The notes beneath the pieces were generated by a model. That model saw only the letters and a program-made list of their open reading frames with translations. It did no database searches and was not told the DNA's origin. A stretch of DNA of 63,691 nt, counting the filler, from Neolecta irregularis DAH-3 (lineage: Eukaryota), in the NCBI GenBank assembly GCA_001929475.1. It is 11 parts of 11 records of this genome, joined end to end, with 100 filler letters (N's around TTAATTAATTAA, not from the genome) between each part and the next. Parts side by side here need not be neighbours in the genome. Positions count along the whole stretch, not along the records: positions 5,929 to 18,710 come from LXFE01003363.1; positions 18,811 to 24,411 come from LXFE01003374.1; positions 24,512 to 37,566 come from LXFE01000367.1; positions 37,667 to 38,700 come from LXFE01000370.1; positions 38,801 to 44,041 come from LXFE01003392.1; positions 44,142 to 45,393 come from LXFE01003400.1; positions 45,494 to 55,377 come from LXFE01003403.1; positions 55,478 to 56,754 come from LXFE01000373.1; 3 more parts are not named here. One strand, 5' to 3'. Made by a program: the position numbers and the translations under genes. Each line of letters opens with the position of its first letter. Position 1 is the stretch's first letter. Shown here piece after piece: positions 8,757-61,108 of the stretch.

Positions 8757-10811
8757 ATGAGGGGCTTCAAGAATAAAGTGGTATGCCTTACTAATCGTTT
8801 TGAATACAAATTGACCCCCCGTCACAGCTTGCGCGAACTAAGAATCATGACAAGGGCGTTCTTTCATTGAAACGGAAGGACAGCGTCGATAAGAAATCGG
8901 ATAAAAAGGATTCAAAATCAAATGAAAAGCAAGACAAAAGTTCGCGCGTGGAACAAGCAACACCTCTCTCCAAACCCATTTCCAGCCCATCTCTGGTGGT
9001 TACTCCATCGCCAGTAATCGTAGGTTGTTTGCACTTTTATATTCTGAAAAGGGTCTAGTATGCTTCTCCGCCAGGTGTTGCGGAAACTATGCCCGGAGAT
9101 CTTGTTTTGCCAGCTAAACATGGACCAAAGGGAAGTGCTTTTGAACGACTTCAAGTTACTCCAAAAGACGTTACACTATCAGAAACGATGAAAACTCCAA
9201 AAAGACATTCTTCCTCTCGTTTCAGAATAAGTGAATCTCGTGAATTGGAAAAGCTGCCATCGTTTCAGGGTACCCCTCTCCCCCTTTCTTTTAAATGCTA
9301 AATTCTTCAAAAGAAGTTTCTCCTCCGAATCGACAAGACTTGTTTCTGCGAAAACTGGATCAGTGTAACGTAATATTCGATTTTGCCGATGCTGCAGGCG
9401 ATATCAAAAGTAAAGAAATCAAACGAGTTGCATTACATGAATTACTGGACTATGTCGCCAACAACCGTGGCGTGATAACAGAACCGCTTTATGGAAAAGT
9501 CGTTACTATGGTAGTATTGCCTTTTTCGTTTGATTTAACTTGTAGTTTTGCAACAACTTGTTTAGACCTATACCTCCCCCTGTCAATCCTATCGGCGAGA
9601 TATTCGATCCAGAAGAAGATGAACCGGTTTTGGAAGTAGCTTGGCCTCATCTTCAAGTAGTCTATGAGTTTTTCTTACGATTTCTCGAGTCGCCTGACTT
9701 CAATACAAACGTTACAAAACAATACATTGATCATCAATTTATCCTACAAGTGGGTCCTCTTTATTATGATCATTGTTTTAAATGGATAGTTATTAGAACT
9801 CTTTGATAGCGAAGATCCGCGCGAACGAGACTTTTTAAAGACTACTTTACATCGAATTTATGGAAAGTTTTTGAATTTACGCTCATTTATTCGCCGGTCG
9901 ATTAACAATGTGTTTTTCCATTTCGTATACGAGTCTGAACGATTCAATGGAATCGCCGAACTTTTGGAAATTCTCGGAAGGTATGCCGTTTTCTTTTTTT
10001 GAATAGAATGTTCAGACGGTAGTATTATCAATGGATTTGCTCTACCGCTCAAGGATGAACACAAGATGTTTTTGGGCCGAGTGTTAATTCCACTGCATAA
10101 ACCAAAGACATTATCAATGTATCACCCTCAACTGGCTTATTGTATCGTTCAGTTTCTGGAAAAGGATCCTAGTTTAACAGAGGAGGTTTGTCAAGGAGTG
10201 GTTATTATGCTGATATCAGGTTATCCTTGGACTACTGCGATACTGGCCAAAGATAAACAGCCCGAAAGAGGTCATGTTACTAAATGAGATTGAAGATATC
10301 TTTGAAGTCATGGAACCCTCTGAATTCGTCAAAATCCAAGTTCCTTTATTCCACCAATTGGCAAAATCGGTATCGAGTCAACATTTCCAGGCATCATCCT
10401 CTTTAAAGATTCGTTTAATTTAAAAAGGTTGCTGAACGAGCTCTTTACTTTTGGAACAATGAATATTTTTGTAATTTGGTCAGCGATAACGTGAATACGA
10501 TACTACCAATCATGTTCACCGCGCTATATGAAAACTCTCAGAATCACTGGAACAGGTTCTCGGTCTCTACATTTGGGGGTTTAATGTATAGAACAATACA
10601 TGGAATGATTTACCATGCACTAAAGATATTTATGGAAATCAGCCCGGCCTTGTTTGACGAACTCACAAGTGAATACAAGATTATGCAAGATGAACTTCGC
10701 AGTCGTGAACAAGGTCGACAGTTGATGTGGCAGAGAGTCGAAACAGCTGCTCGTAAAAGAATTTCTAGCGGTCTAGTCAAGGATCCGATGACCCGTACTG
10801 CATTTTCATAG
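8757..10811 (+). CDS. RTS1: PP2A B' (B56) regulatory subunit, 10 exons
   Basis: [39 protein letters not shown] and [16 protein letters not shown] (the last needs a GC-AG intron at 10391-10427). Confidence 0.93.
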
Positions 10812-11069
10812 TTGTTGTTTACTAACTTGTTACCAGCTGATACTGAGGTTGGGTTGGGAAAGCTACAGTTGGCCTGAGCAGGGAGTATTCATTCTAGGTA
10901 CTATTTTCTTTTTTTTCTAAAATTAAGGCAAGTGGTATTGTTGCATTTAACTTATGATGAATGTTGAGGAGTTTGGTTATTGTAGTAAATATTGATTGGT
11001 CCAAAGAAAAATAAGATTCCACCATTTCCGCAAGAAACTCCTTATTTATTATACAGGACAATAGAAACG

Positions 11070-12717
11070 TCAATACTCTGCATATAAGACTTCTGCAGCA
11101 CTGCTTTGTACTGAAGGCGCCGAGGGAATGTTGCGAAGACGCTCGACTGTTTGTTCTCTGGATTGTAAATTAAAAGAAGATGGAGGAAGTACATTAGGTG
11201 GTCCAGATATGCGCGAGAATTCTTATTATCCATGCTATTTGGGGGTATACAGATCTTGTAATCTGGCCCAAAGTATCCGATATACTCGTTGAAAGGAATA
11301 TCTAACCTTTAATAAACCAAGGTGGATAAGAAATACCTTCGGCCAGTTCTTCGCCTAGTAGAATTGCTGTTTCATAAGTCCAAGCACGAGCAACATTTTT
11401 GATGGTGTAGCCTCCCTGTGAGGCGGGTTAGTACAATGTGGACAAGGATACATACTCCACCCAACGCAATGAGGGGAATGTTGAAGCTTTTGACAAACTT
11501 TACAGCTTCGGCATGGCCGTGCACTGAAAGATTGAAACATCCTAGTTTATCGCCCGCAAGAGAGTCGGCACCACACTGTAACACTATAGCCTCTTGTTGT
11601 GTCAGAGTGTAAAGAGGGGGATATATACCCGGACGATAGAATTGTATGATACGGCTGATTATTGGTTTGAATACGCTTTCATAAGTTAGATCGTCAATGC
11701 CGTCATTCAAAGGGATGTTGACAGAGTAGTTTTTCCCTGGGCCTATACCTACGTCTCCTAACGCACCTAGGCGGTGAGCGACATAAAAGCAGAATATAAC
11801 CGGTTCCAGGAAAGAACTGGCCAAACTTGTGGAATGAGCATGTCTATAGTAAGATGCTGCTGATGGTGATAGATACCATCACACGATCTGTGGTATAGAA
11901 GAATTCTTCGACGCCGTCTCCATGGTGAATGTCTATCTAACAAGAATGAGCGCGGTCAGGGGCAAAGAGCAGGGCACGTCAATGTACAAGACTCGTTTGT
12001 GATATCTAGGAGTAAGCGAGGGCGGGACGGCTAGTTTACTTTAATAATTCGAGAATGCTCAATACAATGTCGTTGACATAGCAAAACTGGCTTGTCAGTG
12101 TTGGATGCAGCAGTACAGGATACGCCTGATGCTTCGCGTTTCTTTGCATGGTGTAGCCCGCCAGACCAGCTGTATCGTCAGCCAGAATTGACGAATAGAT
12201 CTTGTGCTTGATTGCAATGTCTGCGTCGCCGGAATTGATGCGATCAGCGGCAGAAATAGAACCACCGGCCGAGATGCTGCAGAACTCAAACAAACCATCA
12301 AAGACGGGGCAGTCATCACCAACATTGACTGCCGAGGGTCAGCATGTTATAGCGCTGAGAAGAAAAACAGCGAGCCTGGTGAGGGACGAAGCGGTCCATT
12401 GTTTCTGGCGATACTCTGCTTAGAAAATCGATATACTCGTCGGTGTGGCAGCGGGTCATGTCCTTGGCGGAGGCTCTACGGGGCGTCTGGGCGGTTACAA
12501 TTGAAAAAAAGCAGAGCAAAACGAGAAGATCCATCTTGCGATCCAGACGGTATCCGACAATCAGCGCATGGGTCATGGCCATCCGCAACGGCTTCATTGG
12601 ATGGCCAGGCGCATAGTGGAATGCGCCTACATCAGCTGGATATCAGCAAAAATACATGGTGGATTATGGATCACCGTCAAAAAAATAGGCGATCCGGGGT
12701 GAAGCGGATGGGGACAT
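11070..12717 (-). CDS. clr6: Class I histone deacetylase (Clr6/Rpd3 type), 14 exons
   Basis: [63 protein letters not shown] and [16 protein letters not shown] after removing 13 introns. Confidence 0.92.
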
Positions 12718-12769
12718 GGCACCGGTTCTCCGCCGCGACGCTGTTGACTATTACCCCCGCTCTTAACCT

Positions 12770-12958
12770 CCATTCTCTTATCTCGATTAATTTCTGTTAA
12801 TCCTCGGTTAATCTCGATTAACTCTCGATTAACCCTCGATCAACCTCGATTACCGTCATCGACCTGTATCGACTTCGATTAACCCTCTCTACTCCTCTAT
12901 TAACCTCTATTACCTATTACCAACCTCTATTACCTCTACTACTCTACTACTCTACCCC
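12770..12958. repeat. Degenerate 9-11 bp minisatellite (CTCGATTAA grading into CTCTATTA) in a divergent promoter
   Basis: About 13 imperfect units lie between the HDAC ATG (12717, -) and the kinase ATG (12960, +). Confidence 0.7.
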
Positions 12959-12959
12959 A

Positions 12960-15110
<2,151 letters not shown>

Positions 15111-15554: not shown

Positions 15555-16906
15555 ATGAACTACATTGCCCAGCCTTGTCGTTTGCCGGATATTCTTTTGG
15601 TCCATGGCACTGAGCCGTATAATGCAGAGACTCCCTTGCATCGTATTAGACGATATCAAACACTTTGATAATTCTTCAGTTTTAAACGAGAATTGCTCAT
15701 TGTTGGATCCTCGGACTATATTCAGACGGTCAGACGATACTGTCTGTATCTAACCTGTAGTAATCATGGTCCTCTTCCAAATATTCGAGAGAACGATCAT
15801 ATTCTTTATATCAACGGTCTTATCGAACAACCACTTGAACTAAATATGGTCCAACTCAGGAAATTCGACAAACATACTGTCGTAAGTGCTATACAAGTAT
15901 GTTGATGTCGCATGGACGAGTAACAGAAAGTGTGCTGGTAATCGCAGGTCTGAAATGTCAGAAACGGAAACTACACAAGGTCTTCAATGGCGAGCTGGAA
16001 CAATTTCAAATTGTTCATATAGCGGCGCACGGATCGGTCATATATTAAAAAAAGCAAGATGTAGGAAAACAACTGGATTGCATATTGTCATCGCATGTGA
16101 TATACAGAAATGTGATGAAGATGGTAAAACTTTCAGCTCGAGTGACGCTCAGTTTAAGGCAACTATGAGACAAGCATTCCAATCGAAAAAGCAATGAGTG
16201 AAGAGTGTTTGCTGGCATACGAGGTTTTTACTTGTTTCGAAGCTGGACTAATTCTCTAGATGAATGGAAAAGTGTTACCTCGAGAACACGGGTTTCCTGT
16301 AAGAGCGGTGATACCAGGGTTTGCTGGTGCCAGAATGACAAAGTTTGTGACAAGAATTACTGTCCAGGAGAAAGAGAGCAGTTCTTATTATCAGCAACAT
16401 GACTATAAAATTCTCCCACCGCATGTAGATGGGGTCTGTTTTAGGTATTGACATTTAGATTACATCACAGCAACAGGCTTCAGCATACTGGTCAAATGTT
16501 CTCTCGATACAAGAAATGCCTGTGAATTCTGCTATAACGAGCCCTCAGAGCGGTGAAGCTGTGATTAGCAAGGAGGGACGTGTTGAACTTACAGGATATG
16601 CCGTTGCCGGGCCTGGTGGTTGTGTCAAGAGTGTTTATGTAGGAGATGGAGACCATTGGATTGAAGCAAATCTTCAGAAATCCAGCGAACGATGGGCCAT
16701 GGTCTTTTGGAATACTACACTTTTAGATGTGACACCAGAGACAGTCATATATTGTCGAGCTGTAGATGAATCTGGCAAGCTTGATGGTTTTAGCAAAGAC
16801 TGACATGACAGGTAATACTCAACCAAAAAAAGCTGCCTGGAATCTCCGTGGGGTATGCGAAAATTCCTGGCCAAAGGTGCAGAATCTGCTATATAGCGAC
16901 GTATGA
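15555..16906 (+). CDS. Sulfite-oxidase-family molybdopterin oxidoreductase without a cytochrome b5 domain, 8 exons
   Basis: PYNAE, RNHGPLP, QCAGNRRSEM, AYEMNG..LPREHGFPVRAVIPG and RAVDESGNTQP..WNLRGV. Confidence 0.85.
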
Positions 16907-16967
16907 TTGTGAATTAATAAATTGTTCTATATGACCTATGACCTGAAACTCTAGACTGTATAAATAT

Positions 16968-17734: not shown

Positions 17735-18400
17735 ATGTCAGCAGTCGTAGCTACAGCTATTCTATGTCTCACGCTGGTGCTGTGAGTGCAACGATACATG
17801 TTTACTAGCAGGGTTACTACGCTGGTCAGGGCGGTTCGTTATGCTGGGTTTCGTCGTGGTCGTCAGCCAAAAGACGCCGTCATACACATTTATCTGACGA
17901 ATCTTGCTCATCGGGTGAAGATGCAGAGATTGAGGAACAACAAGCACAATTGAACAAATTGGCCGCTCAAGAAGACTGCAAAATGGCACAAACATGGTGA
18001 TGAGTGCCTTCTAACCACCAGGTATTCATTGTTCGAACAGATCTGGAGATGGGAAAGGGGAAAATTGCTGCGCAGGTGCCCTATCACCAAAAGAATTGTT
18101 TTTTCTTACAAAAAGTGCTGTCACGCCGCAGTCAAAAACGTTCAGTCAATCCAACGAACGAATCCCTTCTTGTTACGAAAATGGGAGTCCTCTGGTCAAG
18201 CAAAAATTGTTCTCAAGTGCGGATCGGAAGAGGAAATGTTGCGCTTACAATGGATTGCACGAGAGGGAAATCTTTGTGCGAATAGTATCCAAGATGCCGG
18301 ACACACACAAATAGCTGCGGGAAGTCGCACAGTATTGGCGATTGGACCTGGTCCTAAAAGCTCAATTGACAAAGTTGCTGGGCATTTGAAACTGCTTTAA
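17735..18400 (+). CDS. PTH2: Peptidyl-tRNA hydrolase 2, 4 exons
   Basis: [58 protein letters not shown]. Confidence 0.9.
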
Positions 18401-18844: not shown

Positions 18845-19919
18845 ATGCACGACCACAGAGGCCTTTCTCAAGACATGATGTCTGTTGAAGGCTGCTCCCA
18901 CCCGGCATCAGCTGGAATCGCCAGAGACACAGTCAATAAACCTACGCCGTGCCATGAAAACATGTTTATAGACGATCCTGATGTCCGCATTGCTGCCGAA
19001 GCTCTGGAAGAACTCGGTGCGGGTATTTAAACTTGGCTTTTGGAAACTCTGAGACTCTTTCAGGAAAATCAACTGGAAATCGTCGAGAATCTGTATTCCT
19101 GGACCGTGTGGCGTCGTATCATCCCATCATCTCTTCTGCCGTAAATGCATATGAAGCCTCCAAATCCAAGGTCCCGGGTCTCAGGTTTTCTACAGAGGTG
19201 ATGGAGTCTGTAGCACGACCAGTAACGTCGCGGTTTGATATGGATGCCTTCGCGTGTCGGCAGCTGGATCGCGTAATTGATTTGGTATAGGCAAACTAAA
19301 AAGTCCAGATTGAAAGTAATTTTAATGGGAGTTCCATTGCTATAGTCCCAACTTCTCCGTCTTCCAAATGGCATGGCGTGATCGTGAGTGCTGGAAGTAT
19401 CGGAGCAGCCTTTAGCGAAGAAAGCATCCGGGGGTTACGATACTGCATCCAGTGGCTTCGAGTACCAGCTCATCACGTGGCGATCTGACCCTATGATAGT
19501 TCACTAATAACAACGTAGAATGTATGATTGAACAGATGTTGGACCTATTGTCTCTGAAACCCGAGGACGCTGTTGTGCCGCAATCTGAGATCTCTCATCG
19601 GTTGGCTGTTTTCAAAGCCAACATTGTGGAAACGATCAAGCGGACCGTTGACATGGTAGGCAGGTATGCGGGAAGCGCGCTCCCGGGTCCGGCACGTGTT
19701 CGGGTGCGAGAATATATCTTGGGGATTCCTGGGCGATGGGAGAGGAAATCGGACGGGTCACAGACGGAAGAGACCAAGGTTATGTGTCTTGCGCGCGAGT
19801 GTCTGGAAGTTTTGGCGGGGGTGTGTTCGGTGCTGGAGGACACATTGAGCGGAGCCGAGGACTGGTGCGAGCGGCTGGGGAAGCGGAGCGTGGACCAGGA
19901 TCCAAGAAAGAGAGAGTAG
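18845..19919 (+). CDS. OPI1: Opi1-family transcriptional regulator, 4 exons
   Basis: DPDVRIAAEALEEL, DAFACRQLDRIE, SEESIRGLRYCIQWLR and VGRYAGSALPGPARVRVREYILGIPGRW. Confidence 0.8.
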
Positions 19920-20014: not shown

Positions 20015-22682
20015 ATGATCCGGCTGCCACTGCCCCTGCTGCGGGCGCCACTCCCGCTGCCCCTGTGCCGCCTCCTGTTTGCAGAACGACGGTTCTATCT
20101 AGAGACTGGTCGGTATCACGCTCGGCAATATCGCTCCCGCTCCCCCAACCACTACCCCCAGGCTGTATCCATGTCCACGTCCGCTGCCGCGCTCCCGCCC
20201 TGGCTGTCTCCGCCTGCGGCCAGCCCCACTTCCGCTCCCGCCCTCTCCGTCTGGAACTCCCTGACCCGCTCCAAGGCACTGCCGCCCCTGTTTTCCCTCT
20301 CAACCACTCACTCGCCAGACCGCCTTTGTTCCCATCGATCCCCGCCGCGTCTCCTGGTACAGCTGCGGCCCCACGGTCTACGACGCAAGCCATCTGGGCC
20401 ATGCACGGTGCCCTCTCCCTCTGCTCGCGCCCTCCTCTGACATTTCAGAAACTACGTCACCATAGACATCCTGCGTCGTATCACCGAAGACTATTTTGGC
20501 TACAATGTGACCTTTGTCCAGAATGTCACAGACATCGACGACAAAGTATCCCCGCCCACCAATCCCTCTGACTCGAGATCATAGACCGTGCCCGAGAAAA
20601 TTATCTTTACGAGCGATATACGTCGCAACACCCATCTGCCTCCCCCAAAGTTCTCGAGAAAGTCTCCGCCGCCTGGGAAAAATACAGAGAGTCTCATTTT
20701 CCCTCGTCTCCTCCCGGCCTTGCTGATTTCGTTCGCTGGTCATCCACTCTCGACATCTCCGCAGAGACCGCCAAAGATCAAAAATTCCCTCTCAGGCTAA
20801 AGGCTCTGAAAGTGTCCGCCGCCGCCATACAGTCTCCTTCCGCAACATTTTTCGACAATGTCAGGGATATTTTGGTTCCTGTCTTGGACAGCGAGGTGAG
20901 TCATTTTTTCTACCAAACTGTTTGCTAAATAAATTAGCAAGGCGCATCAGTCGAAGACCCTTCAATTTTTAGATCTTTGGCTGCCTATTGGGAACGACAA
21001 TACGACCTAGATATGGCCAAGTTAAATGTACGGCCCCCGACCGTAATCACTCGAGTATCAGAATATATACCTCAAATCATCGATTTTGTAAAGAAATTAA
21101 TCGATAAAACCTTTGCCTATGAGCATGAGGGAAACGTCTACTTTGACTCGATAAATTACGACAGGAACGGCTATTCTCCTTACGTAAAGCTCGAACCTTG
21201 GAATAAGGGAAATCAAGAATTGATTGCGGATGGGGAAGGGTCTCTCTCGAAAACGACCGGCAAACGTGCAACTAGTGACTTTGCGCTCTGGAAGAAGAGC
21301 AAAGCCGGTCATCCAACCTGGGATAGTCCATGGGGAAAGGTATTATTACCATGTCAAAAGTATCTCAGCGTCTAGGGTCGACCGGGTTGGCACATCGAAT
21401 GCAGCGTGATGGCTTCAGAAGTTTTAGGTGAGCAAATCGATATCCACACCGGAGGAATCGATCTGGCTTTTCCGCATCACGACAATGAGCTTGCCCAGTC
21501 TGAAGCTTACCATGGTTGCAAACAATGGATAAACTATTTTCTTCATACAGGCCATCTCCATATCGAAGGTTTGAAAATGAGCAAGAGTCTCAAGAATTTT
21601 ATCACAATTCAAGAAGCGCTTGAAAAATATTCTTCCAGACAACTACGCCTAGCCTTTCTCCTACAACAATGGAACTCTGGAATTGATTTTAGAGAAAGCC
21701 TAATCAGTGAAGTAAAGGGCTTTGAGAAAACCATGACGGTATCCATCCTATTTTCACCATGTTCTAAATCCAAGAATCTCTTTACCAATGTCAAAGCTTT
21801 GAAAAATGAACATAATGAAAGTGTTGGCAAAGGCCTTACTATCCCCTATCAATATGCCAAACATGAACGCAATCTACTAAATTCGTATGGTTCAAGTCGT
21901 CTAAAACTCCTAATAATAGGCTTGATACATCTCAGAAACGACTCCATGAAGCCCTTTGTGACAACTTTAATACACCTTTAGCCGCGCAAATTTTACTTGA
22001 ACTCGTCAACAAGACAAACATCTATTTGTCGAGCACGCGCAGTGATGCTAATATCTGTCTTGTAACCGATGTTTCATCATGGATTGTCAAAATCCTAGGT
22101 ATTTTTGGCTTTGAAATGAGTCAACTTGGGTGGGCCTCTGCTCAAAACGCTCCTTCTGTATTTCTTGAAACTAAAAGTTCTAACATGTAGTCTGAAAATA
22201 CTGTCATGCCGTATCTTCGAGTCCTCTCATCATTCAGAGATCAAGTTCGATCATTATCAATTGACAAGGCTCCTCATTCCCGTATATTAGCTTTATGTGA
22301 TCGGATACGGGACTTTGATTTGGCGGAACTCGGTGTGTCGCTTGATGATCGCGAATACGGAGCCGCCTTGATCAAATTTGTTGATCGGCAAGATTTAGTT
22401 GCTCAACGTGAAGCCAAGTTCGCGAAAGAGAAGGAAAAAGCCGATAAAAAAGCTGCAATGAAAACTGCAGAAGATGCCAAAAAGAGAGACCGTCTTGAAA
22501 AAGGAAAAACTGTACCCTCTGAAATGTTCAAAACTGCAGAATACAGTCAGTGGGACAATAATGGAATCCCGATACTCGACAAGGAAGGTGTGGAAGTGAA
22601 TAAAAGTCGACGCAAGAAGCTGATAAAAGAATGGGAACTTCAGAAAAAGCTACACGAAGAGTACTTGCTATCAATGAGATAA
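20015..22682 (+). CDS. CRS1: Cysteinyl-tRNA synthetase, ~9 exons; second in-frame ATG at 20171
   Basis: [60 protein letters not shown] and KMSKSLKNF. Confidence 0.94.
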
Positions 22683-25742: not shown

Positions 25743-26623
25743 TTATAACCCACGAACAAAGACAACGGTATGGAAATTCTTAACCTCTGAATTTTCAAAC
25801 AGCTCGCTAGTCTTTAACACTTCGCCGCTCTCGACGTGCCATAGACTCAATTTCAACCAATCAGCTCGAGTATTAGAGCAAAATTATACCTGGTCTAAAT
25901 TAATTGTATTATTGACGTTCCGTAATCCCATCCTACCAGTTAGCTGAAGCCTGAGAAGATGTCCACATACATTGTAGCTAACCGATCTAAAACCTTTCCA
26001 TTACTCCAATCTTTTGATACGAAAACCTCCATTTTGGAGTTTCTTGACTTTTCGCCAGGAGGAGCTTCGATCCAAAACCAAACTCTCTTTTCCTGAGGAA
26101 CTTTATCGTCGCCTTTTGCCAGTCTTTTCATTTCTACGATATTATGTTTTGGACCGGGCCTTTTGAGCAAAGCCTGCTTCCTCTCTTCTCCCCACTTCTT
26201 AATTCGTAATAACGCTGATCGTTGTGATTTCTGGAAGGGCGTCTCTGGTGCGCCTGAACAATTATGATCGATTGCATGCCGATCCTTGAGACAATAAATA
26301 TTTCTGCAAATGCATATTGTTCCTGGCGAAGTAGTATCGTTTAGTTCTGTTAAACATTTTGCGCATTTGCCGGTCGCCTTTGAGTTTACTGGCCATTTAT
26401 CTGATATCGGCGATGGGGAATTCTTTTTGGCAAGAAATTTACAAGAGTGTATTTCTGCTTTCCAGTGTTCGTTGCAGAACTTGAGGTTGCAGAATTCGCA
26501 TCTGAATGGGAGAAAATCTAGTATCCTGATTAGTTGTTGCAAAGTCACTGTAAATAAACCAAGCTGTCGACATTCGGCACAGCGGTCCCCTATTTCTTCA
26601 AATTCGCCGACTTGTTGTTCCAT
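25743..26623 (-). CDS. AN1-type zinc-finger protein with C-terminal ubiquitin-like domain (Cuz1/ZFAND1-like), 4 exons
   Basis: IGDRCAECRQLDFLPFRCEFCNLKFCNEH, a second AN1 finger YCLKDRHAIDHNC, KRLAKGDDKVP, GKVLD, NVNN...KLSLWHVESGE...TVVFVRG. Confidence 0.82.
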
Positions 26624-27748: not shown

Positions 27749-27984
27749 TCAAGGCACCGAGTAATGAGAGGTCGGAGATTCCAAAGTTGCTTCGAACGCC
27801 CGTTTGCCATATAACCTCCAGAGAATTCGGCTATCGCCCTCTGGTATCAGCGTTTGAGATATCACAGCGTGTCGCTAACCGCCGGGACCTGCCCTAATCC
27901 GAGTACGGAATCCCGCTATCGCCAACTTCGGGCCAGCTAGCTTACGGTCAAAGGTCATCGTCAAACTTCATTTGCTCCAACGCG

Positions 27985-29910: not shown

Positions 29911-30860
29911 ATGTCGTCCGACATTTCACCTGTAAAGAGACTGGGAATCGACGTCTTTTCGGCGATTTGTGCGGGAAGTCTGGTGCGTTGATTTAATTCA
30001 GGTTTGTTGACGATATAAAAGGTAGCCCCTTTCGTCGCTATGGTAGATCGGCATGAATTTTTCTCTTAACGGAAGATGCTTACGTGTTTTAGGAGTATAA
30101 TAGAAAATGCGAGTGGAAAAAAAAGAATATTTCAGTCTTTGAAACATTCGATTTTAACGATGATTACGAAACCTACTCATTTCTTTTTCTCTCCTGCATA
30201 CAGACTTGTCTTTGTATGTGTACTACGACTAGGTAGATACTAAGATCTGTTAGATGGTGTATTCGTGTACTTATTTTAGTGCAAATTTGGTCGACACAAC
30301 AAGCAATATCGTCTCGAAAAATCCGGATTTAAAACACCAGAGCAACGGAGTCGAAAAGTTTCTCGCCACGTCGAGGTATTTGAATATTGTTCCATCAAAC
30401 ATACTAAGGATACAAGCACCAATATGATACTCGGGGTCTACAAGGATTGTCGTCTAACCAGATGTTTTGGGCAAGGTGTTCCCCGTCGTTTGCCTCTTCC
30501 ATCTTACGCTCTCTTTGTCGCTCGAGACGCACTAACAATTGCTGCGTCATTCAATCTTCCACCACTCCTAGCAACTTATTTCCCCGGAGGTGTAAACACG
30601 GCCCAGCTTGTTTCTCCTTGCGCACTACAGTTTGTTAGCACCCCATTGCATTTATTGGGCCTTGATTTATATAATCGAGAAAAAAAGAACTGGAGAGATC
30701 GATTTGAACAAATTAGAAGAGAATATTTGAGAAGTTCGTTGGCACGCATTGGAAGGATTTTACCGGCGTTTGGTGCATGAAATTGAAGTCTAAATACTGA
30801 TACGCTTTAGGGTTTGGTGGCATCACTAACAGGCATCTCCGTAATTGGTGTTTAGAGTGA
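29911..30860 (+). CDS. Conserved fungal membrane protein, probably mitochondrial (resembles S. pombe C365.16-type proteins), 6 exons
   Basis: LVAPFVAMVDRSIIENASG, YALFVARDALTIAASFNLPP, QFVSTPLHLLGLDLYNR and ARIGRILPAFGFGG. Confidence 0.75.
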
Positions 30861-34817: not shown

Positions 34818-37566
34818 TTACTGCATAACAACGCTGGTCCCGTCCATAAACCTGGTTCGGTATATTCGATTTGCGTTTGAGAACATGCCTTCTTTCAAGC
34901 TTACAACGATAAACTGGGAGCTGCGGCAATTAGTTGTTTTAAGTGAACCCATAGGCTTACCCTTTAAATCTAGTCTTAATCAAGCGTCCGATATTTTGGG
35001 TATGACTTAAATCTAACGCAGCGTCAACTTCATCAAGAATGTACATTGGTGCTGGCTTGAACTGCAAGAGCGACATAATTAATGCTAATGCGATCAGAGA
35101 CCTGTTATTAGCATGCTATTTCATTAGAAAGTAGCATACCGTTGACCTCCACTCAGTTCAGTCAAACTTTGTTTCCAAACTTTCCCAAGACATACTCTGA
35201 CTTCCAGTCCATCTGAGATATTCTTCCCTTCGGGCGCCTCTAATTTTGCAAAATTTCCAGGTAATAATTCTGCAAATATTTGTCCAAAATCACCATTAAC
35301 TTTCTCCCAAGTCCGTTGCAAGGCTTCTTTTTTATATTCATCGAGCGTAGATATTGTCTCCTCGATTTTCCGTTTATCGCGTCGGACAGTTTTAAGCATT
35401 GTCTTCAAGCTGGATTCTTTCTTTTCGACGCTGTCGATCATGTTCATTACTTTTGCATTAACTTTCTTCTGCAAGCCTTTGAAACGTTCTGTCAATGATT
35501 TTAAGTTATTTTTACATTCAGAAATGTTTTGATTCGCAAAATAATACGGCGTCCCTTGTCGACCAAAGTTGCTATTCCGTAAGACTTGAATACTATTTAA
35601 TTTCGGGAACTTACCTCTTCTCATCACCGATCCACTCGTGCTCGCGTTCCATTTGGACTAATAGACTCTCCACGCCTTGAAGTTCTTTATGGAATTTCTC
35701 GACCTCATGGCGAAGTTTCTGTAACTCTAATCCACTCTCCGTGATTTCAGAATTCTTCTGCCGTGAGGCTTCTTCAAGACTCTTCAACTCATCGTCAAAA
35801 CTGATCATTTTAGCTCGCTCGCTTTCCATTTCAGCGTTGATGAAATCATATTGGTCCTTGATCTTTGAATGGTCTTTATGTAGTGACTGGAGCTCTGATT
35901 GTTGGATTTGTAGTGTACTATTTGCGTCGTCGAGTTGTTCTTGAGCCGCTCCAAGGTCGGCTCCTAATTGTTCTGCATCATGAGTTAGATATCACCAGAA
36001 ATCAATGATACCAGCTTCCAGTTGTATTGTCTGGAATTCTCTCTTGCAATCTTTAACATTTGTACTTTGTTTCAAGATTGAAGCCTTGAGATCATCAAGT
36101 TCTTTCTGGAAATGTTAGAAATTTGTCGATTGCGCAACACACCTGGAGTTCCTTTAGTTTTCCATCCTTATTGTTCTTGAACTCGTTCATGTCCTTCTCA
36201 ATCTTTCTGACATCTTTTGAAGCGTCATCTCCTTTATTCTTTGCTTCAATCATTACCAGTTTCAATTCCCCAATCCGTTTTTTCATGTCTTCAACTTCAT
36301 GAATCAACTAGACCAGTGAGCATTCTCATCGCGATCTACATGCCTTTGAATGCGAATTACTGTTGATCTGTTCCTCGGTAAGCCTTAACTCGTGTCTCTT
36401 CAAGTCCAATTGTTTTTTCAGCGTTTTGGCTTCCGTATTCTTCTCTTGATCCATGTTCATCTGCCGCTCGATAGCATCAAACTCCCTCTTATAAATATTT
36501 ATTTCACGGGTGACTTTGTTTAATTTTTGAAGATGAACTAATAGTCCAGAAGTGCTGACACTGCTGCCACCACTTAACGTACCCGAAGGGTCATAAACAT
36601 CCCCTTCCAGCGTGACACTTTTCAATCGGACAGATGGATTGAATGTTACAGTTTTGGCGGTATCGGCGTCTGCACAAATTAATGTCGAACCAAAGACATA
36701 TTCCATTGCGGCGGAGACTTCACTGTCATATCCTACAAGAGATAACGCAAGGTCGACTTTTCCAGGGGCGAGTTGGTGAGCTGAATCGATTTTCTTTCAT
36801 AGTCAGCATTTTAAGAAGCAATAGGTACCTCTGCTGAAGCGCGAAAGGCGGAAATCCGGTTGAGTGGAATGATAGTTACTCGTTTCCTAAGTTTTCCTTT
36901 CTCAAGGAGTTGAGTTCCTATCACTTCGTTTTCGACGACAACCTATAGTTTTAGTTTTGCTATGAGAAAAATTGCACATTATACAATCTACCACCTGCAC
37001 ATATTTCAAGAGCAGTAGCAGCTTTGAACTTTTCCTGATCCAAAGAGAATAACTGAGCAACGAGACCTTTGACTTTACTCCGATCGAAGTTTGGCGTTGG
37101 ATCCGAATACACAAAGTCAATATTTGCCGCTTTGCGACTAAGATTATCCGCATTCTAACCAATTAACCAAATTTTGATGGAAAAATGGTGCCTCATGCAG
37201 TTCATTGATCATTGCTTGTAATTCGGCTTTCCTAGAAAGATTCGCCTGTTCAGTATCTTCGTTCCAATCAAGATTCTGTAATTCATTTTCCAACCTTGTA
37301 CCCTCAATTCTATGGCTTTCTAATTCTTTCAGCGCGGACATATTCTGATCACGGGCTTTTTTGGCTCGTGGTTCATCGGTTTTAATCTGTTTTTCTAGAT
37401 GCGAGATCTTCAATTTCGCTTGTTCCGATTCCGTTTGGGCATTGGAGATTCGTGTTTTGGCATCTTGCAATTGATCCATGTAGCCAGCATCGTGTCCTTC
37501 CTTTGCAGCCACTCCAGTAATTAGAGTTTGCAATAACTCTTCTTTCGACGATACTTGCTGTTGTTG
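34818..37566 (-). CDS. SMC2: Condensin subunit Smc2/Cut14; 5' part lies in the gap
   Basis: Hinge [63 protein letters not shown] and [12 protein letters not shown]. Confidence 0.95.
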
Positions 37567-38800: not shown

Positions 38801-41607
38801 TGATTCTTTTATCTGCAACGGTCCCAAATACTCTCGAGTTCGCCAGTTGGGTTGGCCGAACGAAAAAGAAAGATATATATGTAATTTCCACACTAAAAAG
38901 GCCGGTCCCGCTGGAATATTTTCTTTGGGTAAACAAGTCGCTGGTCAAGATCGTTGACTCCAATATGAATTTCCTGACGCAAGGGTGACCACTTATCTTT
39001 GGATCCAAGAAAACTAATAATTATAGTTACAAGGAAGCAACCCTTTTAATAAAAAAGCCCAAGGTAACCAAACCTTCTAACGATGCACGAGGTAGAGGTC
39101 AAAAGCATCAATCAACGAATCATCTTGGAAGAGCAAATATTCGGTCACAAACGGACAAATATGTGTTTGTGCATCTGGTAGATTATTTGAAGAAGCAAAA
39201 TCTTCTTCCCGTGGTTGTCTTTGTGTTTTCAAAAAAGCGATGTGAAGAATATGCCAGCACGCTTTCGAACATTGATCTCTCCATCCACTCTGAGAAATCC
39301 GAGATACACATAGCTATTGAGAAGGCAGTAGCTCGTTTAAGGGTTGAAGATCGCCTTCTGCCTCAGATTGCTCGCATGCGAGATTTTCTCGGTCGAGGAA
39401 TTGCTGTCCATCATGGTGGTCTGTTGCCAATCGTCAAAGAAGTAACATCCTCTTCCAAACCATAAACTCATACTAGATTGTAGAGCTGTTGTTTGCCCGC
39501 GGACTGGTCAAAATACTCTTCGCTACAGAAACTTTTGCAATGGTTTCTTCCCTTTTTTTTTAAACGTGTTCAATTATCAGGGTGTCAACATGCCCGCTAA
39601 ATCAGTGGTCTTCTCTAGCATGCGAAAACACGATGGTCAAAGCCTCCGTGACTTACTTCCTGGAGAAATGACGCAAATGGCAGGAAGAGCAGGGCGGCGA
39701 GGACTCGATGTCACTGGCACTGTTATTATTCTTTCTGGACCTGACGAATTACCAAGCGTAACAAAAGTTTCACAACTCCTTATGACATTGTAGTCGACTA
39801 TGTTGTCATCTATTATCCTTGGAAAACCGTCCAAGCTGGAAAGCCAGTTCCGACTGACTTACAATATGATTTTGAATCTCTTACGGGTAGAGACTTTGAA
39901 AATCGAAGAAATGATAAAACGAAGTTTTAGCGAAAATGCAACGCAGTCATTGTTTCCAGAGCAACAGCAGTTAATTACTCACTCTGAAAATTCCTTAGCA
40001 TCGCTCTCTGTTCCAGAATGTGATATCTGCAAGCAGGACCTTTCGGATTGTTATTCCTTAATTATCAAGGCTGCCAAACTACGATGTGCAAGACATACAA
40101 AGGCTATAACGCTTCCGCTTGGCCACCGAATTCTAGCTCCTGGAAGATTTTGCACAATTCGCGAGGATGCATGGTTTCATTTTTGAATAGCTCTGATTAC
40201 CTAGTCCTCGTCGATATACTTGGCAGTGTTACTTAGCGATTTCAGGCATATGGGCCAAGTCCTTCCAACGTGCAAGGGTCTACGGTTTTCACAGAGTTTA
40301 AAAGGCAATCCCAGAAATTGTTTCTGTTTTAACAGACAGTTGGTTCACTGCCATATCTCGGTCCACTTTGCAACTTTTTCCCCCAGTTTTCCTTATTGGA
40401 CAAACCAAATCCATGTCTCTTTAGTATCGATCAAGTCGAATCTATCACCGATTGCGCTTTAAAGGTACTCTTTCCTTCTTTTCTGCTTTTGATATGCAGA
40501 TCAAATCCCCAGAAATCTTGAGCGGTAATGTTGAAAGTCTGCAGAAACTGCAAGATTCTTTTCAGGACTTGTGGCAGCATAACCCTGCTTTTGTCAAAAG
40601 CGAAACGAGCTGGCTCAAGAGCAAGGACGTCGAATTACAAGAGCTCGTGGCAAAATATGAGGGAGCTTTAGTCGGTATCGAAAAAAGTCATTGCATCAAG
40701 TGCCCCAAGTTTTCTTCGCACGTATGAATCTATCTGGGAGTATTGCTTATAAAAGTTTGCGGCATTACATCAAATCGAGACTGTGAGACTGCAAATTCAC
40801 GATTTGAGGCAAACTATGTCAGATCAAAACCTCGAATTGATGCCCGACTACCAACAGCGACTCGCCGTCCTCAGAGATCTTGAGTTCATAAATGAGGACG
40901 CGAACGTACTTTTAAAAGGCCGAGTAGCATGTGAAGTGTGTCTACAATATCCTGTACATGCTGAATATTTTCGCAGATTAATTCTGCGAATTCTTTGGTC
41001 ATCACAGAGTTGGTTTTGGAAAATTTGTTGGTGTCGTTTGAACCAGAGGAAATAGCGGCTTTGCTTTCAGCTTTTGTCTTTGATGAGAAATCCGAGATTG
41101 AGCAGAGTATTTCAGCCCACTTAGAATCGGTATATACTCCAACTTCGCTACTGATTGTCGCAGGGAAAGGAACAAATTTTGAGGATCGCTGAACATGTTC
41201 AAGATATAGAACTAAAACGTCAAGTATCTTCTCTTAATGAAGCCAACATTCTTGGCAATATTCCACGGTTCAGTCTCATGGAAATCGTGTATGAATGGGC
41301 TCGCGGAATGGCATATTCTTTCTCAAATGCGATAGCTGATGAGTGCAGAGTTTCAAACAAATCACGGAGCTCTGCGATAAATCGGAAATATATGGTGTTT
41401 CATTTGAGGGAAGTATAGTGCGCACGATCACAAGACTTTATGATCTTTGCAGAGAAGTCAGAAATGCTAGTAGAATTATTGGAGATACAGCATTATACGA
41501 TAAGCTCGAAACTGTATGTCCTTTGTTCATGGAATAGATTTAACTAGCGCAAGACCATGTCGATGCTGAAGAGGGACATAGTTTTTGCGCCATCTTTGTA
41601 TTTTTAA
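38801..41607 (+). CDS. SKI2: Ski2 DExH RNA helicase; 5' part lies in the gap
   Basis: [76 protein letters not shown] and [11 protein letters not shown]. Confidence 0.93.
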
Positions 41608-42002: not shown

Positions 42003-42492
42003 TTATTGATGTTGCAGCTCATAACGCTCTCTTGCTTTGCCAAAGAGTTCTTCTTGCTGCCTTAAAAGCTCAGCCTCTGACATTCCCGACTGATCGAGTT
42101 TTGACTGCTTTTTTTCTTTGGACTGGATAGTGAGCTAGTGAATACAGCAAGAATATACTTTTTGCTGCTCCTTGTGTTCTGCAGCGACTTCCTTGATGTC
42201 TGCGATATAATCATTGAACCCTAGATCTTCAAGCGCTTTGATAACATGTTCGGCTGCGATTGTTTTTTTAGATTCGCGTTCACAGATTTCGTTGGCTTCA
42301 GAGGATATTAAATGGACGAATTCGACACAGCAATCGATCAGGAGATCGCGAGTTTCCTTGTTAAAGGTAAGATCGACAGGTAGGATTTCGGCGATAAGTT
42401 TCTGGACGGTAGCTGGGAAGTCAGCTCCAAGGGACGGCGGGATCTGTGCCTTTTGGTAGAGATAAATCGTCGTCTGCTTCTCTTTCCGTCAT
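42003..42492 (-). CDS. NCB2: NC2 beta subunit (Dr1), 3 exons
   Basis: DDLSLPKATVQKLIAEILP, RDLLIDCCVEFVHLISSEANEICE and KKTIAAEHVIKALEDLGF. Confidence 0.9.
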
Positions 42493-49976: not shown

Positions 49977-52900
49977 TTATAGCTCCGACATCTCTATCTC
50001 TTTGGCTTTTTCTAACATGACTGACATTGCAATCCAACCAAGACTTTTGCCAATTCTGTCCTGACTACCTTCATCGACAACCGAAATATAATAGCAGAGC
50101 TGCTCGGGCAAATATATCTTTAGGGCTCTCCAAATGGCCACAGATCTGCAGCCGAATATCGTAAGCCAAATGGTGATATTGTTCGCGAAGAGTTTGTATG
50201 AGATCGTACGATCGTCGCCCACGAGTAGTTGACGAGGCCGAGAGAATACACCCCATAACAACTTCTTCTTCGGTTAGATTGGCTCTTGAAGGGGAGTAAT
50301 CTGTCTGGAATATTTTCAGTTCTTTAACGTACGATCTGTAGATGTCTTCGGCTAACGAACGGTGCTCTCTCCAGCGTTTCTGCGATTGATTGAAAATCCA
50401 CAAATTCAATTTATTCGACCTCAAACGATCAGGCAAGTGCGTTAGATATTTTCCCTCGTAGTCCTTGGTTTGTTGACGGACATTCATACTTCGGAACAAC
50501 ATCCCCAAAGCTTTTTTGCTTTCATAATATACACCACGCTCGCGTTTCGGCCGATGTTGGCTTTCTAGTAAATCTACTGCCCATTCAGGGCGCCTGAAAT
50601 CTGGTCGAGCCGCATCTGTTGCCCGTGGTGCATTACGCATGTTGACCTTGATACCTGTTTTAGGAAAATCAACGGCGGTAGAATGCATCTCAGCCAATGA
50701 AATACATGCGGCTGCCTTTACGCCTTCAGGATCACGGTCGGCTATGTTTTGATGAAGAGAAGCAATTAGACCAAGATTGTCATTCATTATGAAATCAATG
50801 AAAAAGTCAATAATGTCTTTCGCTATGCAGGGTCTATCGAGTTCAAGGGGTTTTGGAGCATGATAGCTTGCCGGAGGAAATATTCGAGGGGGGAGCAAAG
50901 TTTGATCCCAGATCACATTGTAATCATCACCGTCTAAGTCGCCTATACAATTAGCTTTACATCAACTAACATTTACCTCCACCGAGCATGCTAGGCAAAG
51001 GACGATAGCCTTTCTGGCTGAAGACTATGCAGTGATTTAAAGCTCGCAAAGGTGATGACTGATCGACATCGACTGCTTGGGAAAATTGGACGTCACCAGG
51101 ATGCATTGCAGGAGATCTCGACACAATAATCTGTCCAAGGATTTTTACTTTCCGCTGTGTTTGTGAATCTGTGAAAGCCACGTAAACCTCGTCTTCGAGC
51201 AATGTATCAGTCTCATCTAGTATACCTTTCAATAAAGCTGCTCTTGGTACAGGAATTCGGCTTCGATATTTGATTTCTTTGAGCATAAATCGCAGCCCGG
51301 TAGTATTGCAGGAACGGAGAAATTCAGACTCCGCGAGCACATCATAATCAGGGAAGCGCTTTGACAAAAGCTTCATAGTCGTACCCATCCGGATGGCTTG
51401 CCCAAGACCATACAAATTATAAAGACCTTCAATGCGCCGAATATCACTCGATCTTTCTTCAATCAATTTTATCGCTTGATTTTGGAGGTCTAAAAAATGT
51501 TTTATGGGAACCCCGAGGGTTTCAAGAATCGTGATTAGTGGGCGATTGAGGAACATTTGTAGGCTTCTTGTCGCAGCAGATGCAATTTCTAGTATATTGG
51601 CCAAAGGTGCTTCGAATTTGCGCATCGAAGGCCGAAGGCACAACTGACGCCCGAGCAACGATGTATCGAGAGCCACGACACCTTTGGCACCACCAAAGCG
51701 AATCTGAAGTACTGTTGTCTGAGAATCCATATCAAGGGTTTGCAAGACATCTTTGAGAAGCTCTGAAGATATCTTTCCAACTCCATCACTGAAACAGTAG
51801 CCGTTTCGCTCAACATCAGGAATTTTATTGATTTCATGGGGTAACAGTTTGACTGATGCAAGTGTGGTTGTGAAGGCTTGCGCCATTCTTGCCGCATATC
51901 TATGAACACATCAGCTGTTTCTGCATAAAACCGGAAAACCTTGGAGGACAACGGATGCGACTCAGATCACCAATCGAACTGCGGATACCCTCGGGATCAA
52001 TTCGCTGGCCCTTATATTCGAACGGTGTCATAAACCAAACTGTATGTTCTCTCAACGAGCTTTGAGAGTAAGCAAGGTAGCGATATTCCCGTCCAGCCAC
52101 ACTTATGAATGAATGAGCGAGTATTTTCTTGAATCTCTGTTGTAGAATATCGTCGAGAGAAACTTCCGGATTGAAGTGCAATCTCTCAAAATGCTCGTCG
52201 GCAAACGTAACTCTCAAGAAATGGTCGTGATGATTCGGATACAATCGCATTATCCGGTTTCCTTGGTCTACTTCTGGACCCTCGAGGTAAATTCCACTGG
52301 GTGTGCATACAGCTTGATGAACCCAAATGTGGTTTTCTGCCGGAATATCCAAGCGCGATGTTTCTGCCGCAGTAACTGGACTATCAATGACGTCCAGGAT
52401 TGTTTTGCAAAACTCATATTCAGACGGATAAGAGTTTAAAGGAGATCTGATTGCGAGATCTGAAAGTGATCGAAGCCTCGATGCCAGGATACGATCTTTC
52501 AGGCGGCTTGCATATATATTATGTCGAATTTCGTTCATCTCGGAGGGAAGCAAATATGTACTCGAGACTAACCTATGACATTGATGTGCTACAGTAATTG
52601 GTAAAGATCGATAGAAGATGTCCAATTTAGATAAAGTCTCCCTTCCATATTCCCGCTTACTGATCGAGTGAACATTGAAGCAATTTTTGGTATCCCAAAA
52701 TTGTGCCAGTATATGTGACTCGAGGAATTCGAAGCAATAAACATAACAAAAAGCTGCAACGGTACCATGATCTTCATTTATACAGGGCTTACGAGTATCG
52801 GATGGTCTGTAGTCTACGACGCTGTGAAGCAATTCGTTTCTGCCTGCGTTAAGGAACTGTGGCGTCACAGAGTTCTCGATATAAAGCTTATTGTTCGCTT

Positions 52901-53483
52901 TATCTTTAATGAGATGGTTGACTTGGGACTTCTGAATTACGATCTTCATGTTGATGTGGTTAGAAGTATCTATGGGTTCCTCTATGGAACAAACGAAGCG
53001 CCGCCCTTCTGATTCCCAAACAATCTCGATTGCGGAAGATTTCCATTGCTCAAGATATACACCAGTTGAAGACCATACGCCACAGCTGACAGTTCGAAGA
53101 GCTGCAGTTCTCAATGACTTTTCGTTCTCTGGCTCATCGTCAACCAAGGTCTCGTCCTGAAGTTCTGTATGCGCCTTCAGCAAAGCTTCCATTTCGAATT
53201 TCGTAAAATTTCGGACATTTTGAACTAAATTCAGATTCTGTTGTAGACATGTGATCGAGTTTCCTTGAGATATAAAGTCGAGAATCTTTATGCCAATTGG
53301 AGGCGTTGGAACTGTCAACAAACCTTTACCTTTACCTTTACCTTTACCTTTACTTCCAGCAAAAACAACAGCTGTAAAGAATGGCAACTGAGTTGGCCAG
53401 ACCCTTCTTAGTGAGTCGGCGATGCTTTCTCGAAGTGTAGATTCGGTGACATTATAAGGTATACCTGAGATACGAAATTCCAT
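49977..53483 (-). CDS. Cellular RNA-dependent RNA polymerase (RNAi, Rdp1/SAD-1/QDE-1 superfamily), 3 exons; C-terminus possibly frameshifted
   Basis: FSDGVGKIS, QIRFGGAKG, LRPSMRKF, SRSPAMHPGD, GGDLDGDDY (split by the 50943-50976 intron) and HSTAVDFPKTG. Confidence 0.93.
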
Positions 53484-55245: not shown

Positions 55246-55304
55246 GAGTATTTATTTTATTGATGGTTGGTTGGGATTCATTTGTAAATATATCAATTTA
55301 TATT

Positions 55305-56754: not shown

Positions 56755-56854
56755 NNNNNNNNNNNNNNNNNNNNNNNNNNNNNNNNNNNNNNNNNNNNTT
56801 AATTAATTAANNNNNNNNNNNNNNNNNNNNNNNNNNNNNNNNNNNNNNNNNNNN

Positions 56855-58043: not shown

Positions 58044-58100
58044 TGGTGCTAAGATGAGGACTTGTATTTTTAAAGACTGGAACCGTGTCATGACTCATTT

Positions 58101-59183: not shown

Positions 59184-59318
59184 ATTCCAGGTTCTCGAGC
59201 AACAATTTGGAGTTCGTCGTAACTGAAACTCCCGAAACGGAAATTGTAAACAAAACACTCAAATCTCCCCACACCACCAACTCAAACCTCTAAAAATCCA
59301 GGTAGTCGAAGTATCGAT

Positions 59319-61108
59319 ATGGACAGTCCAACTTCAAAGATTGGCGAAAATGTTCGCGTAGTAGTGCGTGTGCGCCCATTGAATAAGAGAGGTGAATATT
59401 TCCCAAAGAACTAGGTTTGATATCTGCAGAAATGGAACGCGGCGCTAAATGTCTAATTGCAATGGATAATGACACTCAAGCAACTTCAATTCTCAGACCA
59501 GATGCACGAGACTCTGGGAATGCTCGAGCTGCGAAAAGAGCAAGTAATGATGATTCCAAAACTTTCACCTATGATCGATCTTTATGGTCTGTCAATCCAG
59601 AAGATCCGCATTACGCCGGTCAAGAGTCTCTCTATGACTGTCTGGGTAAGGAGTTCTTGGATCATCTGTTTGCTGGGTACAATACATGCATCTTTGCTTG
59701 TAAGTGTCTATAGTACTCGTGAAGCGTTGACAAGTGCTAGATGGACAAACCGGCTCTGGGAAGACGTTTACAATGGTTTCTTCAAATGCTAGATATAATG
59801 GAGAACTGATATAGTTAGATGGGTAGTAATGATGATCCTGGTTTAGTTCCCCGGACATGCAACGATCTATTTCGTCGAGTTGACAAACTCTCTGACAGCC
59901 ACCAATGCTCAGTGCATATATCCTACTTTGAAATCTACAACGAGAAAGTTCGTGATTTACTAGCTGCTATGGTTAGCGATAACGGAGGTTTGAAAATACG
60001 AGAATCGCCGTGTGATGGTCCCTATGTTGAAGACCTCGCCGAATTCCAGGTGAGTTCGCTGGATGATGTCGAAGCTTTTATGAGCATGGGGAATAAGGCA
60101 TTATCAGACTCTTCAACTTCTTTTTTACAGATAATAGGTCCGCACAACGGCATCTACGGCAATGAATGACCAATCCAGTCGTTCACATGCTGTCTTCACT
60201 ATCGTTCTTCGGCAACTTTTCCAAGATTTAAATTCGAAATCACGTATCGAGAAGATATCCCGATTCAGGTATCTTTTCTATTACTTTACTTGTTGAAGCT
60301 ACCAGGTTGGTAGATCTAGCTGGTTCAGAACGGGCAAATGCTACTGGAGCAACGGGCATTCGTCTGAAGGAAGGCAGTAACATCAACAAGTCATTGACTA
60401 CCCTCGGACGGGTTATCGCGTCTTTGGCTGAAAATGACAATAGAAAAAAGCGCGACGTAGTCCCGTATCGAGATTCTGTAAGACACTCTTTAATTACTGC
60501 GCTTCATTTATTAGACACTCACATATATTCTTAAAGATAGCCTCGGCGGGAATAGCAAAACCGCAATGGTCGCATGTATTTCACCCTCAGATTACGACGA
60601 AACTTTATCCACTCTTCGTTATGCCGATCAAGCCAAACGAATTCGTACTCGAGCTGTCGTGAATGAGAAGGAAAACAACCTTTCAGCGAAACTTTTGAAA
60701 GATCAATTAGAAAATGTCTTATCAAGCCATGTTTCAAGAGGAGTAGAATTGGAAAATCTTAAGAAAGAAAAAGACGAGATGCGACTAATGTTTGAAGAAT
60801 GGGCTCGAAATTTGGGTATCAGCATACCTTTGCCGTCTGCTGATTTACAAGATCGCGAAAACAAAGCCCTCAAAATTGAGCGAGATGCTCTGCGGGCACA
60901 TCTCCGACTAGCTATAGAGTCCTACAAAAATCCAATACCTGTGATTTGCGAAAACAAAGAGGCAGATGTCGAGCGTGAGAAGAATGCCAAAGCAGTCAAC
61001 GATCTCCATGACGAATGGTCTGATCTTTTGCAAGATATTGGTCATTTCAAGCGGGACATTCAAGAAGATATTGCTACTTTTGCCATTGTTGCTACCACGG
61101 CTGCTTGA
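59319..61108 (+). CDS. Kinesin-3 family motor with a short tail, ~8 exons
   Basis: [66 protein letters not shown] and [14 protein letters not shown]. Confidence 0.92.

Follow-up and report, generated by a model that had tools for sequence, protein, structure and literature searches.

In five model species GC-AG introns account for 0.37-0.87% of introns, and their deviation from GT is compensated by a closer match to the U1 small nuclear RNA (snRNA) (Sheth et al. 2006, PMC1557818), while the mean reported for fungi is 1.009% (Frey & Pucker 2020, PMC7072748). Higher shares have been described: manual curation raised that of the fungus Ganoderma lingzhi from 1.26% to 1.85% (1706 introns; PMC11590231), and the cyst nematodes Globodera rostochiensis and G. 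pallida are reported at 3.46% and 3.53% GC/AG, the former being called the highest for any nematode, with introns that automated annotation missed and curation found (PMC4901422). In Symbiodinium, GC and GA donors are said to rival GT (PMC5177918). The present analysis concerns GC-AG introns in a stretch of DNA of 63,691 bases (the window; 39-48% G+C, with 24 runs of N) from Neolecta irregularis DAH-3. This species is an intron-rich, early-diverging ascomycete that is much used for studies of fungal multicellularity and of intron evolution. The literature searched held no work that joins N. irregularis with GC-AG introns, and in the main text of its genome paper (PMC5309816), which states that RNA was sequenced, neither 'intron' nor 'splice' occurs; the supplementary methods of that paper may bear on the subject.

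A first-pass annotation of the window had listed 12 introns that start with GC instead of GT, plus a tentative thirteenth, and had put their share at about 7-8% of roughly 150-160 introns. The recount bears this estimate out: 12 of 148 modelled introns are GC-AG, which is 8.1% (95% confidence interval 4.3-13.7%) and about eight times the fungal mean (binomial P = 4.6e-8 against 1.009%). Judged by reading frame and homology, a start with GC is predicted for no fewer than 11, and for a probable 12-13, of the approximately 148 introns. A GC-AG intron is carried by 11 of the approximately 35 gene models. On these grounds a high local rate of predicted GC-AG introns is confirmed.

Introns were counted with a purpose-written semi-Markov gene finder, which scores codon log-odds together with explicitly modelled short introns and was trained iteratively on GT-AG introns only; its introns form the denominator of 148. 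The finder converged on approximately 156 GT introns, with lengths sharply peaked at 34-42 nucleotides (nt), and strand resolution left the approximately 35 gene models with 150 introns (136 GT and 14 GC) before curation. Nine of the 12 listed introns were recovered with exact coordinates, as was the tentative one, and of the 28 GT junctions called in three genes, 23 coincide with those of the deposited protein models. A first heuristic gene finder had been dropped for over-prediction (approximately 390 introns per strand). When applied to the window, a strict GTRNGT seed yielded 10 introns vs 16 with a control pattern, and a loose filter (donor dinucleotide, branch and YAG) showed no discrimination, with approximately 7% for every dinucleotide.

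All 13 listed segments are present in the window sequence, where they start with GC, end with AG, measure 36-43 nt and contain a CTRAY-like branch motif 7-10 nt 5' of the AG. The junctions were assessed with the unaltered flanking exons as queries, by comparison of their coordinates in Pfam profiles, PDB structures and orthologs (Table 1). Exact removal of the segment restores a seamless match at 11 sites, namely the tentative one and 10 of the 12 at which conserved motifs had been claimed to be restored. Of the other two, the segment in the peptidyl-tRNA hydrolase gene is probably a GC-AG intron, and that in a small gene is a plausible one. In-frame GT alternatives score at least approximately 4 log units below the GC intron at all sites (the dinucleotide itself being unscored), and all but one of the alternatives listed at the counted sites change the length of the protein, the exception being a same-length shift in the sulfite-oxidase-type gene (SUOX).

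Table 1. Predicted GC-AG introns of the window, with one ambiguous candidate that was not counted
Gene or region	Position	Strand	Length and frame	Evidence at the junction
PP2A B56 subunit	10391..10427	+	37 nt, phase 0	Pfam B56: upstream exon ends at 317, downstream exon begins at 318
Class I histone deacetylase (HDAC)	12170..12207	-	38 nt, phase 2	Clr6 88-126 upstream, 15-residue middle exon 128-142; split codon is 127
STE20/MST-type kinase	13295..13333	+	39 nt, in frame, stop-free	Read-through surplus vs STK25 and STK24 is exactly 13 residues, i.e. 39 nt
Sulfite-oxidase-type gene (SUOX)	16775..16811	+	37 nt, phase 1	Pfam Mo-co_dimer 110 / 112; split codon is 111
Peptidyl-tRNA hydrolase 2 (Pth2)	17986..18021	+	36 nt, two in-frame stops	Probable; just 5' of the PTH2 domain
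Cysteinyl-tRNA synthetase (CysRS)	20276..20318	+	43 nt, phase 0	After first exon; spliced N-terminus gap-free vs homologs
Small gene, no recognised family	30051..30092	+	42 nt, phase 2	Plausible; continuity of the open reading frame (ORF) only
Smc2 coiled coil	36308..36343	-	36 nt, phase 0, in-frame stops	Gap-free vs six orthologs
Smc2, 5' of hinge	37155..37191	-	37 nt, phase 0	41-44 of 57 residues past the junction identical to six orthologs
Ski2 arch region	40169..40204	+	36 nt, phase 0	Spliced segment follows the ortholog arch
Ski2, ambiguous, uncounted	40305..40339	+	35 nt	Frame change needed here
Ski2 DSHCT domain	41311..41348	+	38 nt, phase 0	Pfam DSHCT: last upstream position is 112; downstream residue 6 is 115
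NC2-beta (Ncb2/Dr1)	42413..42449	-	37 nt, phase 1	After 14-codon exon 1
Kinesin motor	60098..60137	+	40 nt, phase 0	Pfam Kinesin 186 / 187; downstream residue 2 is 188

In the HDAC gene the one-residue gap seen against Clr6 recurs against HDAC1; the middle exon gave no Pfam match and was matched by the PDB search. The next intron of this gene (12087-12123) is an ordinary GT intron, and a GC call at 12087-12125 was rejected since the true intron uses the GT at 12123. When read through, the kinase gene places 54 residues across 42 positions of the Pkinase profile. The possibility of retention that had been allowed for the kinase segment finds no backing in STK25 and STK24, which do not have the 13 read-through residues, and a GC call at 13307-13343 was rejected in favour of 13295-13333. 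The PTH2 profile begins three residues upstream of the Pth2 junction, with the first residue after the segment at profile position 4, and the sole two in-frame GT alternatives are at least 11 log units worse. A PDB search with exon 1 of CysRS gave no match and the orthologs decided the site: the join of exons 1 and 2 is gap-free against nine homologs (eight fungal, one insect), LT[RKH][SQT]K is kept in six, all matching, and exon 2 begins at residue 49-50 of a solved CysRS. For the small gene no Pfam family was matched; its ORF would start with an ATG at 29911 and end with a stop at 30780 once the GC segment and three GT introns are removed, and the weak in-frame GT alternatives that exist there are approximately 9 or more log units lower.

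The Smc2 site 5' of the hinge has zero in-frame GT alternatives, and the deposited model, which reads through the segment, is identical to the same six orthologs at only 6-8 of 60 residues. In the Ski2 arch, the site that had been left tentative is supported both by the course of the orthologs and by exon length, since 75 codons are available to cover 76 profile positions. At the ambiguous Ski2 candidate a GT donor 9 nt upstream is equally frame-preserving, and the region is too divergent to choose between them. A tblastn search with orthologs puts the start of the exon after the Ski2 DSHCT segment exactly at 41349. The DSHCT domain also has a seven-residue insertion relative to orthologs at 41376-41396 (+), directly 5' of the conserved EGSIVR and below intron size for this genome. 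In the Ncb2 gene, exon 1 and the split codon together encode the ortholog N-terminal motif that abuts the histone fold; among the 98 usable orthologs, 14 agree with 8 of the 9 residues that precede the junction, and the split-codon Ala is present in 90. The alignment of exon 2 to NC2 beta begins at residue 21 (chain 1jfi_B). Among the relatives of NC2-beta (P0361-P0510), many predictions have unrelated residues where well-modelled orthologs have D-D-L-S-L-P-K-A, which suggests widespread misannotation of an intron at this position in other organisms.

Four further GC calls were rejected during curation. The call at 63527-63561 is an edge artefact with a one-codon exon, that at 26245-26279 falls within an intact read-through zinc-finger-like motif, which we take to be an AN1-type zinc finger, that at 27867-27903 has a GT donor adjacent to it, and for that at 61852-61885, within the pol gene of a retroelement, a GT donor is available at a distance of 4 nt. 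The retroelement (61718-63564, -) is a Ty3/gypsy-type pol remnant with RT_RNaseH, Integrase_H2C2, rve and Tf2-1 SH3 domains, and the short 'introns' that the finder placed in it may be frameshift patches.

To compare GC with chance, all 16 donor dinucleotides were given an equal prior on the coding strand of the kept genes and scored at four penalties, 14 of them serving as controls. GC exceeded all 14 controls at every penalty, with 18 introns at -9 (control mean 7.9, maximum 15), 16 at -10 (5.4 and 10), 13 at -11 (4.0 and 7) and 11 at -12 (3.0 and 5), and no other non-GT donor rose above control level.

The donor statistics given for the 12 counted GC introns are correct (GCA in 12/12, a pyrimidine at +4 in 11/12 and G at +5 in 3/12). 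What they were taken to mean, a weak GCAY donor, stands as regards the lack of compensation but not as regards a special class. The rest of the GC donor is not closer to the U1 consensus than that of the GT donors: matches number 3.25 vs 2.90 of 7, which with n = 12 and limited power is not significant, and the +5 G is found in 3/12 vs 40%. The GT donors are equally weak, however. In the 136 GT introns, G occurs at -1 in 57%, A at +3 in 66%, a pyrimidine at +4 in 72% and G at +5 in 40%, and the donor carries 1.68 bits over the seven positions outside GT. "GCAY" is the general weak G|GTAY donor of this lineage with C at +2, and since the GT introns share the weak context, the oddity is a low-information 5' splice site overall, with GC following from it. 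The branch 7-mer, in contrast to this, is estimated at approximately 5.4 bits, an upward-biased figure.

The two kinds of intron are otherwise much alike. Median length is 37 nt for both. Most branch A residues are 6-12 nt away from the AG; each of the 12 counted GC introns has its branch A in a CTRAY-like motif at 7-10 nt, and GT introns peak at 7-8 nt. Intron scores average 11.8 for GC and 10.7 for GT (standard deviation 2.1), so that the GC introns fall within the GT distribution. They differ in the +3 A, which is present in 12/12 GC introns vs 66% of GT introns (p = 0.018), and in the branch score (5.23 vs 4.57, p = 0.04); a G at -1 is found in 10/12 GC introns. As a separate observation, the following exon starts with GT after 4 of 13 GC introns (at 10428, 16812, 18022 and 60138) vs 12 of 136 GT introns. 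These exon starts may be due to chance or be a proto-splice-site footprint.

By their GC start, AG end and U2-type branch at the usual distance, the predicted introns are classed as U2-type. The U12-type GC-AG pattern (GCATCC(TT) donor with a TCCTTAAC-like branch 10-15 nt from the 3' end; Sheth et al. 2006) was rejected: no donor matches ATCCTT at more than 4/6 positions, there is no branch match of at least 7/8, the 6/8 matches are 20-22 nt away, and chance matches span the same range in GT introns.

Shared intron positions give some indication of how the GC donors originated. The position of the Smc2 coiled-coil intron is split at the same residue in 20 of 80 fungal metagenome loci, and 11 of the 12 clean splice solutions have a GT donor, with six distinct donor sequences. 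This fits a switch from GT to GC, and the ancestral state at this position would most simply be GT. The position 5' of the hinge, on the other hand, is intron-free in 72 of 74 other fungal loci. The two Smc2 sites thus show GC donors in an intron that is old and shared as well as in one that is not widely shared. Switching between the GT-AG and GC-AG subtypes is described as common in vertebrates (PMC1557818).

The deposited gene models were compared for three genes, whose exons are 100% identical to the Smc2, cysteine--tRNA ligase and ATP-dependent RNA helicase proteins of N. irregularis DAH-3. None of the six candidate GC junctions in these genes is included in the deposited models. The Smc2 model reads through at 37191 into approximately 45 frameshifted residues and uses a shifted GT-AG pair at 36343, with the loss of three conserved residues, while the Ski2 model leaves the correct frame twice (in the arch at 40169 and by read-through at 41311). 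In the CysRS model the true first exon is missing and the protein is merged with that of an upstream Opi1-like gene, apparently because the GC donor after exon 1 of CysRS was disallowed. The Opi1-like gene (18845-19600, +) lies directly upstream of CysRS (20171-22682, +). Since the deposited models of these three genes avoid GC donors, published statistics cannot contradict a high rate.

The explanation that we favour, with a probability of roughly 0.7, is that these are standard U2-type introns in which a change from T to C at +2 is tolerated through relaxed selection and drift, the introns being defined by their length and branch. GC introns would arise by T-to-C transition at +2 of GT introns, and such changes would be tolerated, and drift to approximately 8%, because the sequence of the 5' splice site carries little information here. 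Definition of the intron would come mainly from the narrow length window together with branch and 3' signals, with the invariant +3 A, the prevalence of G at -1 and the slightly stronger branch as residual requirements. As a rough calculation, if mutation by itself would leave C and T nearly even at +2, the C:T ratio of approximately 0.09 would correspond to scaled selection of approximately 2, and a share of 1% to approximately 4-5, so that weaker selection or stronger drift would suffice.

Several points weigh against this explanation or against the count beneath it. The finder misplaced the HDAC and kinase introns and left the small gene at 30051 unmodelled, and 5 of its 28 GT junctions disagree with the deposited models, the mismatches mostly adjoining GC sites. 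A pyrimidine at +6 is rarer in GC introns (4/12 vs 76%; p = 0.004, uncorrected), which simple drift does not predict; with n = 12 there is little power, and no single-position p-value survives strict correction for multiple tests. When both strands are counted, GC at the loosest penalty is inseparable from the controls (51 vs 52 for AT), and by the intron-signal score alone (threshold 11) GC has no excess, with 28 introns where the controls have 16-39; it is thus reading frame and homology that carry the case. The genome-wide rate of GC-AG introns is extrapolated from this window, splicing in vivo at the given boundaries is predicted from sequence, and the attribution of the tolerance to relaxed selection and drift, not to changed small nuclear ribonucleoproteins, is our inference, a change of machinery being less probable.

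Such a change is the alternative that survives best, although we consider it unlikely. It supposes a lineage-specific alteration of the 5' splice-site machinery, which would neither discriminate at +2 nor need complementarity to U1, making GC equivalent to GT; candidates are the 5' end of U1 snRNA, the ACAGAGA box of U6, loop 1 of U5, U1-C, Luc7 and Prp8. In its broadest form, which is likewise tentative, approximately 8% of introns would be GC-AG throughout the genome, tolerated through a mechanistic relaxation in an snRNA or a U1/U5/U6-associated protein, with length and branch defining the ultra-short introns. An altered machinery would account for GC introns that lack U1-consensus compensation, for the very low donor information overall and for a share that is approximately eight times the fungal mean and approximately four times the transcript-curated fungal benchmark of 1.85%, and, as something of a precedent, a U1 variant has been put forward for the GA donors of two animals (PMC7072748). 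At only approximately 8% GC, however, T is still strongly preferred at +2, the invariant +3 A and the enriched -1 G are expected if the standard contacts matter, and among the non-GT donors GC alone is above control level. Because of the +3 A in 12/12, the -1 G in 10/12 and the stronger branch, standard recognition under relaxed selection fits at least as well as an altered machinery. An Rfam search of the window returned zero RNA families and thus no snRNA gene.

It is improbable that the window is unrepresentative, i.e. that it holds a chance or local cluster of GC-AG introns in a genome with a rate near the usual 1-2%. The sample is 63.7 kb with approximately 35 gene models, and a metagenome scan for a close relative of Neolecta gave none (best identity 66%). 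The 12 introns are nevertheless spread over 50 kb in 10 functionally unrelated genes, and a binomial P of 4.6e-8 speaks against chance. That the C at +2 is an error of assembly or sequencing, or that the segments are retained or spliced at a nearby GT, is most improbable of all: the kinase segment is in frame and stop-free and could be retained, and the deposited Smc2 model does take a GT alternative at 36343, but at least 11 independent errors would have had to fall precisely at +2 of an intron, retention brings a stop or a frameshift at all 13 sites except the kinase, where the 13 residues are absent from homologs, and with the GT alternatives conserved residues are lost or inserted.

The window holds other elements of note. 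A transposase gene of the Harbinger/PIF type (DDE_Tnp_4 / HTH_Tnp_4; 37695-38639, +) is flanked by runs of N. Its neighbours are Smc2 (34818-37479, -), which is without its N-terminal third, and Ski2 (38965-41607, +), which is without its N-terminal half; this arrangement may mark a zone where a transposon was inserted, or else a join made in assembly. At 50071-53483 (-) lies a gene for an RNA-dependent RNA polymerase, a component of the RNA interference (RNAi) pathway, with the Pfam RdRP domain and the fungal RdRP PH-like domain.

If the share in the window holds genome-wide, it is the highest that we found reported for a fungus, and it comes without the textbook compensation; a rough extrapolation of approximately 8% gives a couple of thousand GC-AG introns. 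Neolecta would then be a natural test case for the recognition of very short introns and for the true constraint on +2. There are practical consequences as well. In the three deposited models the omission of GC introns gives proteins with frameshifts, truncation, shortening or fusion with a neighbour, and under the same condition a large part of the public proteome of the species would be wrong in places. Analyses of gene families, of selection and of intron gain and loss that draw on this proteome would be affected (e.g. PMC7940399).

Compared with the U2-type GC-AG introns of model eukaryotes, those predicted here have the same GC at +1/+2, the same AG at the 3' end and a U2-type branch, and they interchange with GT-AG introns at homologous positions, but they are approximately eight times more frequent and do not have the heightened match to U1 that is the documented hallmark of the class. 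Ganoderma lingzhi is likewise a fungus whose GC-AG share rose on curation, to a reported level approximately four times below that of the window. In Symbiodinium GC donors are also described as being used on a large scale; this and other dinoflagellates differ in having GA donors, long introns and other unusual features of gene expression, whereas the window has an excess over controls for GC only, introns of 33-44 nt and a fungal CTRAY branch. The reported situation in Globodera combines, as in the window, a lineage-wide rise of GC, donor flanks like those of the organism's own GT donors and introns that automated annotation misses; between the two Globodera species the GC states are conserved. 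There, both kinds of donor are given a strong CAGG[T|C]AAGT consensus in an RNA-seq-based analysis, while the consensus in the window is very weak and the analysis is sequence-based, and the local GC rate in Neolecta is more than double that reported for Globodera.

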